A stretch of 25,230 bases of DNA from Dehalococcoidia bacterium (GTDB lineage: Bacteria; Chloroflexota; Dehalococcoidia; GIF9; UBA5629). Under the pieces are notes generated by a model. It was not told where the DNA came from, made no database searches, and saw nothing but the letters and a program-made list of their open reading frames with translations. The translations under genes and the position numbers were made by a program. The stretch is taken from the NCBI GenBank assembly GCA_030604795.1, contig JAUVVE010000001.1, positions 1 to 25,230 on the forward strand. The letters run 5' to 3'. This document shows positions 11,459 to 18,671 of the stretch, piece by piece (the stretch's first letter is position 1; the number at the start of each line of letters is the position of its first letter).

Positions 11459-11885
11459 CTCTCGCCTCTTCCTTGACCGTTTCTTTTGTCACAAACCTGG
11501 TGGCGATAGGTAACTTATAGGAAGCCAGATGCATCGCTTCCCGAGCCATACTCTCTTTTATGCCACTCACCTCAAAAAGCATTCTCCCCGGTCTCACTAC
11601 AGCTACCCAGTGGTCTGGAGCACCTTTGCCGCTGCCCATTCTCGTTTCCGCCGGTTTCTTAGTCACTGGCTTATCCGGGAAGACGCGAATCCACATTTGA
11701 CCCCCACGACGCAAATAACGAACTATGACTCGACGAGTAGCTTCAATCTGCCTAGCTGTTATCCAAGCCGCTTGGTAAGCTTGCAGCCCAAACTCACCAA
11801 AGGCAATGGTGTTCCCCGACTGCGCTTTTCCCCTCCGTTCCCCCCGGTGAGCTTTACGATACTTCACTCGCTTCGGCTGTAGCAA
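11430..11885 (-). CDS. rplP: 50S ribosomal protein uL16
   Basis: [11 protein letters not shown]...ITARQIEA.R...[12 protein letters not shown]...KLPI.T. TTG start. Confidence 0.98.
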
Positions 11886-12525
11886 TTTCTCTCCTCACTT
11901 CAGGCACGATGTCACCTTTATAGACCCAGACTTTGACCCCAATATGACCCATTGCAGTATGAGCCTCAGCAAAGCCATAGTCGATATCAGCACAGAGTGT
12001 ATGCAAGGGCAAGCGCCCTTGAAGTGTAGTCTCACGGCGAGCGATTTCAATACCTCCCAGCCTCCCAGCACAACTGATCTTCACCCCTTTTGCACCAGCT
12101 TGCAACGTCCGAAAGGCAGTTTGTTTCATTGCCCGCCTAAAAGCCATCCGACGCTCAAGTTGGTCAGCCACATTCCGAGCCACCAGACAAGCCTCAAGCT
12201 CAGGCTGTTCAACCTCCCTGATAGACAGTCGCACTCTCTTGCCACAGATTGCTTCCAAATATGCCCTCAGTTCCTCGGCACGCTGTCCACCTCGCCCGAT
12301 GACGATCCCGGGGCGAGACGAATACACCGTTAACAATACCTCATTACCTTGGTGGTCAGTCTCCACCCTGGCAATACCACTGTCACGGCACTTCATCTCA
12401 ATAGCTCGACGCAACTTCAAATCTTCCTGCAATAGCTCGGCGTAATGCTTCTCATCATACCACTTGGCCTGCCAGCCTCGAATGATACCGATCCTAAAAC
12501 CGTAAGGGTGAACCTTATGTCCCAT
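11854..12525 (-). CDS. rpsC: 30S ribosomal protein uS3
   Basis: [13 protein letters not shown]...[10 protein letters not shown]...GRLGG.EIAR...[16 protein letters not shown]. Confidence 0.98.
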
Positions 12526-12864
12526 CTATTCTGCCTCCCCAGAAACGAAGACGCTGATATGACTGGAACGCTTCAGGATAGGACTCACCCGCCCCCTTGC
12601 CTGAGGACGGAATCTTTTCAGGGTGCGCCCCTGATCAGCAGAGATATCCGCAATCCTAAGCTCAGAAGGTTCCATTTGAAAATTGTTTTCAGCATTAGCG
12701 GTCGCCGACTTGATTACCTTGGCCACAGCTCGAGCAGCCCGGGTCGTTGAGAATTGCAGAATAGTCAAAGCCTCATCAACTCTTTTGCCCCGTACCATGT
12801 CTGCGACTAGTTTGACCTTCCGAGCCGAAACACGAACGTCTTTAGCTATTGCTCCTACCTTCAT
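12526..12864 (-). CDS. rplV: 50S ribosomal protein uL22
   Basis: RVSARKVKLVADMVRGK...SATANAENN...LKRFRPQARGR. Confidence 0.98.
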   Translation of the reverse strand: MKVGAIAKDVRVSARKVKLVADMVRGKRVDEALTILQFSTTRAARAVAKVIKSATANAENNFQMEPSELRIADISADQGRTLKRFRPQARGRVSPILKRSSHISVFVSGEAE

Positions 12865-12874
12865 TCCCGTAAGA

Positions 12875-13168
12875 CTATCCCTTCTTCCTTGCCTGAACAG
12901 TCACTTGCGCCTTGCTGATGTGCCCCCGGAACATCCGAGTCATGGCGAACTCTCCCAGTTTGTGCCCCACCATATTCTCAGTAACAAAAATGGGGACATG
13001 TCGTCGACCGTCATGTACTCCAATGGTATGACCTATCATTTGGGGCATAACAGTAGAGGCGCGCGACCATGTTTTCAGCACTACCTTATCCCCAGAACGA
13101 TTAAGTGCCTCTATCCTGGCAAGTAGTTTGGCATCGCAATAGGGACCCTTTTTTGATGAACGCGACAT
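12875..13168 (-). CDS. rpsS: 30S ribosomal protein uS19
   Basis: [10 protein letters not shown]...[10 protein letters not shown]...HDGRRHVPI...MVGHKLGEF. Confidence 0.98.
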
Positions 13169-13187
13169 CCTATTCCTGCCTCTTCAA

Positions 13188-14018
13188 TTACTTCTCCGCA
13201 TTTCGCCGCCTGACAATCAGTTTATTAGAAGCCTTATTACGGCGCGTCCTATAGCCCAAAGCTGGCTTGCCCCACGGCGTCTTTGGCGCCATTCCCCGAG
13301 GAGCCCTCCCCTCACCACCCCCATGGGGATGGTCTCGCGGCGTCATGGCCGAACCGCGAACCTGAGGACGCCGCCCCCGCAGCCTTCTGGCTCCAGCCTT
13401 GCCCAACTTCACGCCCTGATGTTCAACATTGCCTACCTGCCCCACGGTAGCCAGACAATCAGTCAGAAAACGCCGCACCTCCCCCGAAGGCAAGCGCACG
13501 AGTGAATACTTATGCTCTTTACCTAGAAGATGCGCCACCGTACCAGCGCTACGCACCACCTGCCCGCCCTTGCCTGGCTGCAACTCGATATTGTGAATCA
13601 AGGTGCCCTCTGGGATCAAACCCAGCGGCAGAGCATTGCCCGGCCTTATCTCAGCGCCCTCTCCTGCTCTTATGCTGTCGCCTACGCCAAGCCCAGCCGG
13701 GGCAAGAATGTAACGCTTTTCCCCGTCTGCATAATGGATGAGAGCAATGCGAGCCGAGCGAGACGGGTCATACTCAATAGCCGCCACCCTCCCAGGCACG
13801 CCAAGCTTATTCCTCTTGAAGTCGATTATGCGCAGCCTACGCTTGGCGCCACCGCCTCGATGCCGCACAGTTACCACGCCTCTGCTGTTGCGCCCTGCTT
13901 TCTTCTTGAATGGCTTGAGCAGAGACTTCTCAGGAACTGACTTGGTTATCTCGTCGAACGAGATACTAACCATGCCACGCTTGCCTGGTGATGTCGGACG
14001 ATAAGTTCTCAGTGCCAA
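13188..14018 (-). CDS. rplB: 50S ribosomal protein uL2
   Basis: [38 protein letters not shown] and TPWGKP motifs. TTG start with GGAGGT SD. Confidence 0.98.
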
Positions 14019-14038
14019 AGCTTACCTCCGCCTAATTC

Positions 14039-14134
14039 CTACGGATGTCTCCTTTGCCAGCGATTCCTCTTAAGCATCTTGCGATGCTTATGCTTCGCCA
14101 TCTTCTTGTTCCGTTTCTTGATAACTGAGCCCAA
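14039..14134 (-). CDS. Small basic protein of bS22 / AURKAIP1-COX24 (mS38) family, probable 30S ribosomal protein bS22, 31 aa
   Basis: Not in ORF track. TTG start 6 nt after an AGAGGA SD, TAG stop at 14041-14039. Translation MGSVIKKRNKKMAKHKHRKMLKRNRWQRRHP matches, from recall, the actinobacterial bS22 pattern MGSVIKKRRKRMxKKKHRKLLxxTRxQRR. It neatly fills the 133-nt rplW-rplB gap. Confidence 0.88.
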   Translation of the reverse strand: MGSVIKKRNKKMAKHKHRKMLKRNRWQRRHP

Positions 14135-14151
14135 TTCTAGTCCTCTTCTCC

Positions 14152-14436
14152 TTAGACTCCTTCAAAGAACTCGATCTTCTGCCCTGCCTCCAACGTAACG
14201 ACCGCTTTCTTCCAAGAAGGAGTCATCACCCGCCCCCTGCCTATCCTCCTCATCTTTCCCGGAACAGTCATCACATTCACCTTAACCACTCCAACCTTAA
14301 ACGCGGCCTCGACCGCTTCCTTAATCTGCTGTTTAGCCGCCCCCTTTGCCACCTCAAACACATACCTATTCCGCTCTGAAAGCAGCGTGCTCTTTTCAGT
14401 GATCAAAGGACGCCGCAATACTTCGTAAAGATGCAT
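14152..14436 (-). CDS. rplW: 50S ribosomal protein uL23
   Basis: RRPLITEKS...YVFEV...KQQIKEAVE..F.V.V..VN...WKKAVVTL. Confidence 0.98.
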   Translation of the reverse strand: MHLYEVLRRPLITEKSTLLSERNRYVFEVAKGAAKQQIKEAVEAAFKVGVVKVNVMTVPGKMRRIGRGRVMTPSWKKAVVTLEAGQKIEFFEGV

Positions 14437-14462
14437 GTCAACGCATACCCCGTAATCCAGCT

Positions 14463-15119
14463 CTAAGTGCCGCTAGTCGCCACCGCCTGTGTTCGCTTTC
14501 CACCCCACAACTCCTCCGCCTTGCGCACTGCGTCTACGGTCATTATTAACGCTCTATAGGAGAGCAAATCGGCCACGTTGAGCAGGCGGGCCGGCATTGT
14601 CTTGACACCCGGCAAATTGCGCCCCGACTTAGTCACGTTGACCTCAGCTTCCAAAGTGGCAACAATAACTGAAGTACCCACCCCCAACGCCAACAAGATA
14701 TCCAAGAACTCCCTGGTTCTCGGCTCATCCAGACCGAGCTTGTCCACGACGCTTAATTCTCCACCGCTGGCTTTGCCAGACAGAACACATCTCAAAGCTA
14801 GACGTCGCATTTTCCTAGGCATAGCTTGCCGGTAAGTCCGGGGGTGCGGGCCGAAAGCCACTCCACCACCCCTAAGCAAAGGCGATTTCACATCACCACG
14901 GCGCGCCCGACCGGTACCCTTCTGCCTAAAAAGCTTCCTGCCACTCCCCTTAACCTCACCCCTTCTCTTAGTATCAGCAGCACCCAGACGACGGTTGGCT
15001 AGCTGCATTACTAGCGCCTGGTGCACCACAGCCTCATTAAAGGACACACCAAACACTTCGTCGCTTATTTCCGTCTGGCCGACTACGTCACCCTTCACAT
15101 TATGAACGTCAACTTGCAT
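14463..15119 (-). CDS. rplD: 50S ribosomal protein uL4
   Basis: TKRRGEVKGSGRKLFRQKGTGRARRG...GGGVAFGPHPR...PRKMRRLAL. Confidence 0.98.
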   Translation of the reverse strand: MQVDVHNVKGDVVGQTEISDEVFGVSFNEAVVHQALVMQLANRRLGAADTKRRGEVKGSGRKLFRQKGTGRARRGDVKSPLLRGGGVAFGPHPRTYRQAMPRKMRRLALRCVLSGKASGGELSVVDKLGLDEPRTREFLDILLALGVGTSVIVATLEAEVNVTKSGRNLPGVKTMPARLLNVADLLSYRALIMTVDAVRKAEELWGGKRTQAVATSGT

Positions 15120-15132
15120 TCTTGCTCAACTC

Positions 15133-15744
15133 TCACCGAGCCTTGTTGATAAGCAGCAGACCTTTGTTAGAACCCGGCACCGCCCCTTCAACCAGAAGTA
15201 AGTGACGCGACAGATCGACATCGATCACTCTAAGATTCCGCGCCGTCACTCGGGCGCTCCCCATATGCCCAGCCATACGCGTTCCCTTCCACACCCTGCC
15301 CGGGTCAGTACCAGCACCAATAGAACCGGGCGCCCGATGACGGTCAGATTGCCCATGAGTCTTTGGGCCACCAGCAAAATGGTGACGCTTGACTACACCA
15401 GCAAAACCTTTGCCTTTTGATATGCCGGTAACGTGGACCAAATCGCCGGACTCGAATATATCTACGTCGAATTTTTGTCCCACCTCGACCGACTCAACAT
15501 CCTCCGCAGCAACTTCACGCAGATGCCCAAGCTGACCCACGCCCTTAAGGTGGCCTCTTCGCGGAGAGTTAAGCCCTCGCGTCTCCCCAAAGCCGAGCTG
15601 CACAGCATTGTAGCCATCCTTGGCCTCGGTCTTCACCTGGGTAACAAAGCAGGGGCCAGCTTCAATGGCCGTTACCACAACCTCCCCACTGTCTCGGAAA
15701 AGCTGAGTCATGCCTATCTTTCTACCAATTATGCCTTGAACCAT
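15133..15744 (-). CDS. rplC: 50S ribosomal protein uL3
   Basis: GRKIGMTQ...DGYNAVQLGF...SKGKGFAGVVKRHHF...HRAPGSIG...MAGHMG...GAVPG. Confidence 0.98.
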   Translation of the reverse strand: MVQGIIGRKIGMTQLFRDSGEVVVTAIEAGPCFVTQVKTEAKDGYNAVQLGFGETRGLNSPRRGHLKGVGQLGHLREVAAEDVESVEVGQKFDVDIFESGDLVHVTGISKGKGFAGVVKRHHFAGGPKTHGQSDRHRAPGSIGAGTDPGRVWKGTRMAGHMGSARVTARNLRVIDVDLSRHLLLVEGAVPGSNKGLLLINKAR

Positions 15745-15753
15745 TGTTCCGGC

Positions 15754-16062
15754 CTACAACCTAATATCTATTTCCACCCCCGAAGGTAGCTGAAGCTGGC
15801 TCAACGCATCAATAGTCTTGGAGGTTGGCCCCACAATATCAATGAGGCGCTTGTGAGTACGAATCTCAAATTGCTCTCGCGAGTCCTTATCAATATGGGG
15901 AGAGCGAATCACACAGAACTTCTGGATGTGAGTGGGTAGGGGTACCGGACCAATGACCACAGCACCAGTCCGCTCGGCAGTCTCCACAATTTGCTCCACT
16001 GATTGGTCAACCAGCTTGTGGTCGTATCCCTTGACCTTAATTCGAACGTTCTGCTTCGGCAT
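15754..16062 (-). CDS. rpsJ: 30S ribosomal protein uS10
   Basis: GPVPLPT...[24 protein letters not shown]...LPSGVEI. Confidence 0.98.
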
Positions 16063-18141
16063 CTAAGTCCCTTTCACCCTACCTATGATTTGGTCCCTCT
16101 GGTTAGCGGGCACTTCTCTATAGCAGTCAAACTCCAAGGAATAGCTTGCCCTGCCTTGACTCAGTGACCTCAGGTCAGTGGCGTAACCAAAGGTCTCTGC
16201 TAGAGGAACAAGAGTGTAAACAACACAAATCTCGGCGTGGGTTTCGATTCCCTCAATATGTCCTCTTCTTGAATTCAAATCGCCGATCACATCACCCAGA
16301 AACTGGGCTGGCATAACCAGTTCCAGTTTCATAATTGGCTCGAGGAGGACAGGCTTAGCCCTGCTGACACCATCCTTCAGAGCTATTGAACCTGCCATTT
16401 TGAAAGCCAGTTCCGATGAATCAACTTCGTGGAAGCTGCCGTCATACAGAGTGGCCTTAATATCTACTAGCGGATAGCCAGCTAGCACACCACTTTCTAG
16501 AGCCTCTTTAACTCCCGCTTCCACTGCCCGAATATACTCCTTCGGTATAGCTCCGCCCCTAACCCGGTCAAGAAACCTGAAACCGCTTCTCCGTACTCCA
16601 GGTTCAAGTCTCAGCCACACATGCCCATACTGTCCTCGACCTCCAAACTGACGAATAAACCTGCCTTCGGCTTCTACCGCTACAGTTATGGTCTCCTTGT
16701 AAGCAACCTGTGGCTTACCAACCCTTACCGCCACATTGAACTCACGCAGCATCCGGTCTACCAGGACTTCCAGATGCAGCTCGCCCATCCCAGCAATAAG
16801 GGTTTGCCCAGTCTCCGCGTCGCTACGTACTCCAAAAGTAGGATCCTCCTCCGAAAGCTTATTGAGGACTTCACCAAGTCTATCTTGATCAGACTTGCTC
16901 TTGGGTTCAATGACCATCGAAATCACTGGCCCGGGGAAACGAATAGGCTCAAGAGCCATCGGCTGACTTGGTTCGCACAAAGTATCCCCGGTAAACGTAT
17001 TCCTCAGACCCAGAGTAGCCGCGATGCTACCTGTATCAACCTCGTCCAGCTCTTCACGATGATTGGCGTGCAGGAGAATCAATCTTCCAAGACGTTCTTT
17101 GTGTCCCTTGCTGGCGTTAAGGACTTGCGCCCCCACCTTGACCTTCCCTGAGTAAACCCGGAAATAGACCAACCTGCCCATAAAAGGGTCGGCAACTACC
17201 TTGAAAGCCAAAGCGGAAAATGGTGCATCGTCACTCGCCTGCCGGAGAACTTCCTCGCCAGTCTCAGGATTAATAGCATGAACGGGAGGCATATCCAGAG
17301 GAGAAGGGAGATATGCTATGACTCCATCAAGTAATGGCTGGATTCCCTTATTCCTCAAAGCACTGCCACAAAGGACAGGCACTATGCGACTGGCCATAGT
17401 CAACCTTCTTATGGCAGCTCTGACTTCATGGGTGGGAATGTCTCCACCTTCGACATAAAGCAACATCAATTGGTCATCGTTCTCGGCTAGCCTCTCAATC
17501 AATGACTGGCGGTGTTCATTTGCCTCATCTTTCTGTTCCTCCGGAACCGGCATCTCCACCGGCATAGCGCCAACATCATCAGAAAAGAGCCAAGCCTTGT
17601 TGTCAATCAGGTCTATGACACCCTGGAAGCGATTCTCCTTACCCCAGGGCAACTGTATTGGTATAGGTCTGGCCCGCAGACGCTCTTCAATCATCTCCAC
17701 GGTGCGATGGAAATCGGCCCCAACCCTATCCATCTTGTTGATGAAACAGATTCTCGGCACACCGTACCTATCTGCTTGCCGCCATACTGTTTCCGACTGA
17801 GCCTCTACACCGGCCACAGCATCAAGTACCACCACCCCCCCATCCAGAACTCGAAGACTGCGCTCCACCTCAGCAGTAAAGTCCACATGCCCCGGGGTAT
17901 CAATGATATTTATGCGATGCTCCCGCCAATGACAAGTGGTGGCTGCGGCGGTGATAGTAATGCCTCGCTCCCGCTCCTGCTGCATCCAATCCATCACTGC
18001 TGTCCCCTCATCCACTTCGCCAACCTTGTAGGTGCGACCTGTATAGAACAGGATTCTCTCAGTGGTAGTAGTCTTGCCCGCGTCAATATGAGCGATGATC
18101 CCTATGTTTCGCACCTTGTCCAGAGGAAAAGTTCTGGCCAT
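16063..18141 (-). CDS. fusA: Elongation factor G (692 aa from ATG 18141)
   Basis: [63 protein letters not shown] and LLEPIM motifs. An upstream in-frame ATG at 18207 would add 22 aa. Confidence 0.98.
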
Positions 18142-18200
18142 GACCTTGGTCCCTGTACCAACCGCTTTTTTCGGCCGTTGGGCCTTAATTACTGCTGTCG

Positions 18201-18671
18201 TTACCATCGATAATGAGCAAAAGCTTTGTTCGACTCAGCCATCCTATGTGTATCTTGCCGCCTCTTGATAGCTGCTCCCTGACCCTGGGCAGCATCGACA
18301 AGCTCAGCCGCCAGTTTCTCCGCCATAGATTTGCCGCCGCGAGCTCTAGCAGAGGTGAGAAGCCAACGCATGGCCAAGGACAACCCGCGTTCCGGTTGAA
18401 CCTCTATTGGCACCTGGTAGGTAGCACCACCAACACGCCGCGACTTGACCTGGAGTGCGGGAGTAGCATTCTTGATCGCTTGGCCCAGAATCTCCAAGGG
18501 CTCGGTCTTCAATTGCTGATTGACCAAATCCAAAGCATCGTAGACAATCCGCTCGGCTGTAGCTTTTTTCCCGTCCAACATCACTCTGTTGACAAACTTG
18601 GCCAGGATATGGCTTCCATACTTAGGATCAGGGGTTATTTGTCTCTTTTTTGGTTTAGCTCGCCTTGGCAT
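18201..18671 (-). CDS. rpsG: 30S ribosomal protein uS7
   Basis: MPRR...[13 protein letters not shown]...[15 protein letters not shown]. Confidence 0.98.

Follow-up and report, generated by a model that had tools for sequence, protein, structure and literature searches.

The window analysed here is a stretch of 25,230 nucleotides from a Dehalococcoidia bacterium. On its minus strand, the genes fusA, rpsJ, rplC, rplD, rplW, bS22, rplB, rpsS, rplV and rpsC follow one another with short gaps (11854..18207), and the ORFs of this block occur in the same order in the public gene calls of relatives. The S10 operon order rpsJ-rplC-rplD-rplW-rplB-rpsS-rplV-rpsC is retained on one strand, the sole departure being the gene for the small ribosomal protein bS22 between rplW and rplB. 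The end of fusA abuts the start of rpsJ (16062-16063), with no tuf gene in between, and the same EF-G/S10 junction is seen in relatives' public gene calls.

The upstream neighbour of the inserted gene, rplW (uL23; 14152..14436), was recognized as an ORF ending with a TAA stop codon (14152-14154), and relatives' public gene calls have PF00276 at this position. The downstream neighbour, rplB (uL2; 13188..14018), starts with TTG at 14018 and matches TIGR01171 with 407.7 bits (13200-14012). The two genes are separated by a spacer of 133 nt (14019-14151), in which the bS22 gene occupies positions 14039..14134: a TTG start at 14134, 31 codons and a TAG stop at 14039-14041. The 17-nt gap between rplW and bS22 (14135..14151) contains a Shine-Dalgarno sequence, GAGGA, 6 nt upstream of the TTG, and the 20-nt gap between bS22 and rplB (14019..14038) contains another, GGAGG, 6 nt upstream of the rplB TTG. 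The ORF list and a reading of the minus strand thus confirm the layout described in the original prediction, a 133-nt gap holding a Shine-Dalgarno sequence, a TTG-started frame of 31 codons and the Shine-Dalgarno sequence of rplB. A motif scan of the rplW-rplB spacer detected no promoter-like or terminator-like site, and an Rfam scan of the whole window returned no RNA family.

The peptide encoded by this frame, which comprises 31 residues including 14 Lys or Arg and 3 His, matches the NCBIfam equivalog model NF047430 (ribo_bS22) with 67.6 bits (E = 7.3e-19, profile positions 1-30 of 31), against a curated cut-off of 34 bits. It also matches Pfam PF08213 (COX24_C; the mS38/AURKAIP1/DUF1713 family) with 36.2 bits (E = 5.6e-9, profile positions 1-29 of 33), against a gathering threshold of 23 bits. 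In a search of all PDB chains, the top match was bS22 of Cutibacterium acnes (8crx_X, E = 5.6e-8), with 23 of 30 aligned residues identical; the mycobacterial bS22 chains of 5o5j and 21 further entries were also matched, and mitoribosomal mS38 chains gave weak matches (E = 0.14-1). The alignment spans 29-30 residues, and the N-terminal MGSVIKKR motif and Lys16 are aligned with those of the solved chains. Lys16, which contacts the h44 backbone in Mycobacterium smegmatis bS22 (PMC10081302), is retained in 22 of the 27 distinct operon-type peptides. The genome to which the window belongs (0.92 Mb, 76% complete) contains a single bS22 copy, and a second one is possible given this completeness. The prediction that the peptide belongs to the bS22/mS38 (AURKAIP1-COX24) family, and would score against both the DUF1713/COX24 and the bS22 models, is borne out by the two curated HMM cut-offs passed and by the solved bS22 chains matched. 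The 31-codon frame is a real, conserved gene for an already known ribosomal protein, bS22.

Selection on the frame was assessed in 39 distinct genomes with the rplW-bS22-rplB arrangement. No frameshift or stop was seen in the bS22 frame in any of these related genomes, and 37 of them have a 31-codon frame, the other two a 30-codon one. Variable sites number 19, 14 and 27 at codon positions 1, 2 and 3, respectively, and pooled pN/pS is 0.14 for bS22 versus 0.29 for rplW; synonymous sites are saturated (pS 0.84). The bS22 frame is under purifying selection. A conserved frame with dN/dS below 1 among relatives, the check put forward with the original prediction, is what the pN/pS value and the stable length show across the 39 genomes. 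The signals around the frame are similarly arranged in these relatives: the median gap upstream of bS22, counted from the rplW stop, is 17 nt, that downstream, up to the rplB start, is 20 nt, and an SD-like motif precedes bS22 in 34 of 39. The start codon of bS22 is TTG in 28 genomes, ATG in 9 and GTG in 2; rplB, which starts with TTG in the window, has TTG at the aligned position in 28 of the 39 relatives.

The operon position is shared by the entire sampled part of the order to which the window belongs: all 41 genomes have one bS22 match, each directly upstream of rplB and on the same strand. Here, position was determined by comparing bS22 and rplB coordinates, and 25 genomes were additionally checked with rplW by tblastn. 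In a wider sample of 201 Dehalococcoidia genomes, bS22 was matched in 61 (54 of them over the cut-off) and not in the remaining 140, among them one family whose genomes, of 1.4-1.9 Mb, are complete on a single contig. From the comparison of bS22 with rplB coordinates and from fetched loci, 18 of the 61 bS22-bearing genomes were classified as operon-type, and in 43 the gene is located elsewhere in the genome. The operon-type set consists of the window's order and four further families, namely, f9 (G152), f100 (G489), f80 (G469 and G502) and f78 (G467, G501 and G522). The rplW-rplB spacer is 119-211 nt long in operon-type genomes and mostly -10 to +90 nt in the others. Unusually long spacers occur in bS22-less operons as well (424 nt in G534, 169 nt in G465 and 163 nt in G608). 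Translation of these three Dehalococcoidia spacers in three frames yielded no bS22-like frame or relic. In one genome of the window's own family (G012:C4:489892-490824), the match to rplB falls into two parts and contains an internal TAA, and the adjoining bS22 scores only 38.5 bits; indels in the assembly or decay of this operon copy may be the cause.

Outside this group, bS22 is widespread in other genomic contexts. Among 301 sampled Chloroflexota genomes, 63 have bS22, and the operon position is found only in the window's order and in G152; elsewhere in the phylum, bS22 stands alone in public gene calls, next to genes for acyl-CoA dehydrogenase, thiolase, HAD hydrolase or LemA. In Actinomycetota, bS22 was found in 68 of 121 sampled genomes and near rplB in none of the 68 (none of 64 if four unpublished bS22-bearing genomes, G340, G387, G427 and G459, are excluded); where the two genes share a contig, about 114 kb or more separates them, and in the remaining genomes they lie on different contigs. 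An actinobacterial locus (L267; G370:C1:278424-281513) has a weak uL2-like tblastn match, with 34% identity over about 90 residues, roughly 300 nt upstream of bS22; it was discarded, since the real rplB of this genome is on another contig, and is possibly spurious. The metagenome-assembled genome JADFIY010000077.1, titled 'Acidobacteria bacterium B3T1L10', groups in the phylum of the Acidimicrobiia genome G335: the genome samples drawn around the two are identical, and it therefore adds no further phylum to the survey. In the phylum of G336, with records titled delta-proteobacterium or Syntrophus-like, bS22 was matched in 26 of 81 genomes (18 over the cut-off), and in that of G337, with a record titled Nitrospiraceae, in 41 of 71 (26 over the cut-off). 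Thus, bS22 is common in these two phyla, though neither is named in the structural papers on bS22 (PMC10081302, PMC7797042, PMC10618245). In 56 loci fetched from the two phyla, no ribosomal protein gene lies within 1.5 kb of bS22. A Met-first peptide pattern search, which returns only ATG-started bS22 genes and does not constitute a survey, yielded 21 loci.

Together, these data support an S10-operon position of bS22 that is conserved and lineage-specific, confined to one Dehalococcoidia clade among the lineages sampled. The recruitment of bS22 between rplW and rplB proposed in the original prediction is supported by all 41 sampled genomes of the order, and its statement that known bS22 genes lie outside the S10 operon agrees with our samples, where no other bS22-bearing lineage has the operon position. 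Its extension to 'Dehalococcoidia-type ribosomes' in general is too wide, given that bS22 is matched in 61 of the 201 genomes and lies in the operon in only 18.

Different explanations of the spacer and of its history have to be considered. A very short, TTG-started frame, the exact translation of which is absent from a collection of 15 billion proteins, could in principle be a chance ORF in an enlarged non-coding spacer. However, a chance ORF would not be expected to reach 67.6 bits on a curated equivalog model or to be retained in 39 genomes with an excess of third-position changes and a low pN/pS, and the long rplW-rplB spacers of three other Dehalococcoidia contain no such frame; we regard this explanation as refuted by the NF047430 score and the selection data, with practically no probability left to it. 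Alternatively, the spacer could be a structured regulatory RNA or encode a leader peptide controlling rplB, with the likeness to bS22 arising from basicity alone. A 161-nt stretch indeed folds better than its shuffled versions (z = -3.15), and an 18-nt hairpin with a 7-bp stem and a GCAA loop lies inside the bS22 frame (14072-14089, minus strand). The 3' arm of this hairpin, however, requires ATG-CTT codons that are found only in the window's genus, with CTC/CTT in other genera, and because it rests on codons limited to one genus, the hairpin is probably not a conserved element. Furthermore, nothing in the window matches Rfam, substitutions are distributed as in a coding frame, and the similarity to bS22 extends residue by residue over 29-30 positions rather than being one of composition. 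A regulatory RNA or leader peptide is therefore, in our assessment, very improbable.

A different kind of alternative accepts the gene as a true bS22 homolog and holds that the operon copy was acquired by horizontal transfer from another phylum, or that the gene was inserted several times. The history of the insertion was approached with a tree of seven concatenated operon proteins (uL3, uL4, uL23, uL2, uS19, uL22 and uS3; 75 rows, 1211 columns, quick LG+G4 search). In the free tree, 16 of the 18 operon-type genomes are grouped with an SH-aLRT support of 87, and an inner group of 14 with 98; G152 and G489 fall outside the group of 16, in nearby, poorly supported positions. This placement would be compatible with multiple insertions, and a foreign or repeated origin could also be argued from the majority of sampled Dehalococcoidia families that lack any bS22 and from the little phylogenetic signal that 31 residues contain. 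When all 18 operon-type genomes were held as one clade, however, the log-likelihood was 24.8 higher than that of the free quick tree, with an AU p of 0.67. Operon-type peptides have Trp26 in 27 of 27 and His15 in 25 of 27, a pair that is also the commonest in other Chloroflexota, where His15 is present in all 40 distinct peptides and Trp26 in 29; Trp26 is found in 9 of 10 peptides from other Dehalococcoidia. By contrast, the sampled Actinomycetota peptides mostly have Lys15 (17 of 24; Trp26 is likewise present in 17 of 24), and those of the phylum of G336 have His26 in 21 of 25. Residues 15 and 26 thus fit relocation within Chloroflexota better than import from outside, a peptide of 31 residues being weak evidence in this respect. 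Overall, transfer from another phylum or repeated insertion appears unlikely, and a single insertion between rplW and rplB is the simplest and most likely reading, which the tree does not reject; because the tree was built from the operon's own proteins with a short search, we treat the single insertion as most likely rather than proven.

The window sequence is present in marine-sediment, subsurface and hydrothermal metagenomes. One metatranscriptome library, X20, contains a 328-nt contig that covers positions 13893-14185 with 12 differences and comprises the 5' end of rplB, the whole of bS22 and the 3' end of rplW. Four of the differences lie inside the bS22 frame, two of them synonymous and two resulting in R23K and N24S, and the encoded peptide is that of a same-genus relative (L020). 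This contig fits co-transcription of the three genes in a sister species, with the qualification that DNA carry-over is possible and that an assembled contig is no proof of a single transcript.

We consider it highly probable that bS22, most likely moved once into the S10 operon, is made together with uL23 and uL2 from its own Shine-Dalgarno sequence and TTG start. Under this scenario, the gene would have been relocated from a stand-alone site to the position between rplW and rplB and would be transcribed together with the core ribosomal protein genes. Translation would be initiated at the dedicated Shine-Dalgarno sequence and TTG, either by ribosomes coming directly from termination on rplW or by ribosomes newly bound at the Shine-Dalgarno sequence, and the output of bS22 would thereby be coupled to that of uL23 and uL2. 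By homology with the solved ribosomes, the protein would then join the 30S subunit in the h44/h45 pocket. Because bS22 is dispensable in M. smegmatis (PMC10081302), membership in the operon is no proof of need. A role of the TTG start in tuning the amount of bS22 is speculative; TTG is the start codon of rplB here as well. More tentatively, and with slightly less than even confidence, we suggest that a single ancient insertion was a rare genomic change that marks a marine-subsurface Dehalococcoidia clade (the window's order and at least four families), that it turned an accessory protein into a core ribosomal subunit whose synthesis keeps pace with that of uL23 and uL2, and that the near-universal TTG in the order sets the bS22 dose relative to these two proteins.

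The gene is only partly hidden. Exact copies of relatives' peptides are listed at NCBI as 'AURKAIP1/COX24 domain-containing protein [Dehalococcoidia bacterium]', and public gene calls locate these between Ribosomal_L23 and Ribosomal_L2 in GCA_016875875.1, GCA_020354105.1, GCA_036382715.1 and GCA_012961565.1, as well as in the same-genus assemblies GCA_014384515.1 and GCA_023128735.1. Three operon-type peptide clusters have NCBI records as their only sources, and the exact peptide of the window was absent from the protein collection mentioned above in an exact-sequence cluster look-up. This pattern of sources lends weak support to a tendency of ab initio gene callers to skip the bS22 gene. The prediction that gene callers miss the gene is too general, since the gene of relatives is annotated in NCBI records. 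In the searchable literature, we found no paper that joins bS22 with the S10 operon, none among those listed that joins it with Dehalococcoidia, and for bS22 and Chloroflexi only a review on another subject. The structural papers on MSMEG_0945/Rv0550B, Fjoh_1533 and bb0822 describe no S10-operon position (PMC10081302, PMC7797042, PMC10618245). The operon position thus appears to be unreported in the literature, yet visible in public annotation.

What we describe is a known protein family in a clade-specific operon position, and neither a new protein, nor a new mechanism, nor a new kind of system. The gene order of the S10 operon is among the most conserved in prokaryotes, and therefore, the stable insertion of an extra ribosomal protein gene is uncommon. 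The arrangement is evidence, from genomic context, for bS22 as a regular part of the ribosome far beyond the phyla for which structures are available, and it could be of use as a simple marker of a single Dehalococcoidia clade. For annotation, the lesson is that ribosomal operon spacers can contain genes with non-ATG starts and a length of only about 30 codons. The interest of the finding is moderate and lies in ribosome evolution and annotation.

In the solved actinobacterial, Bacteroidota and Borrelia ribosomes, bS22 lies in a pocket of the 16S rRNA that h44/h45 and adjacent helices form, beside the decoding centre. The protein of the window can be compared with the actinobacterial ones (M. 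smegmatis MSMEG_0945, M. tuberculosis Rv0550B and C. acnes; 5o5j, 5o61 and 8crx, among others), with which it shares the equivalog and Pfam families, the MGSVIKKR motif, Lys16, the approximate length (31 versus 33 residues) and extreme basicity. It has His15 and Trp26 in place of the Lys15 and the Val26 or Ile26 found in the solved actinobacterial chains; moreover, actinobacterial bS22 genes stand alone, far from rplB. The stand-alone bS22 proteins of other Chloroflexota (Dormibacteria, Anaerolineae and other Dehalococcoidia families) are 57-84% identical to that of the window and have His15 in common with it, and TTG and GTG starts are common among their genes, as they are in the window's clade; unlike the window gene, however, these genes have unrelated neighbours and no ribosomal one.

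The bS22 proteins of Bacteroidota (Fjoh_1533) and Borrelia (bb0822) are likewise tiny basic helices in the same 30S pocket, but their sequences are divergent from that of the window, and neither of the respective papers gives an S10-operon position (PMC7797042, PMC10618245). In the control genome of Bacteroides thetaiotaomicron, NF047430 does not reach its cut-off. Borrelia bb0822 has a non-ATG start and was previously unannotated (PMC7797042, PMC10618245). The similarity to mitoribosomal mS38 (Cox24/AURKAIP1) is weak and involves its C-terminal COX24_C domain, which is matched by the window peptide; unlike bS22, mS38 is longer and nucleus-encoded. Both mS38 and the cytosolic eL41 occupy the same rRNA pocket as bS22 (PMC10081302, PMC10618245).
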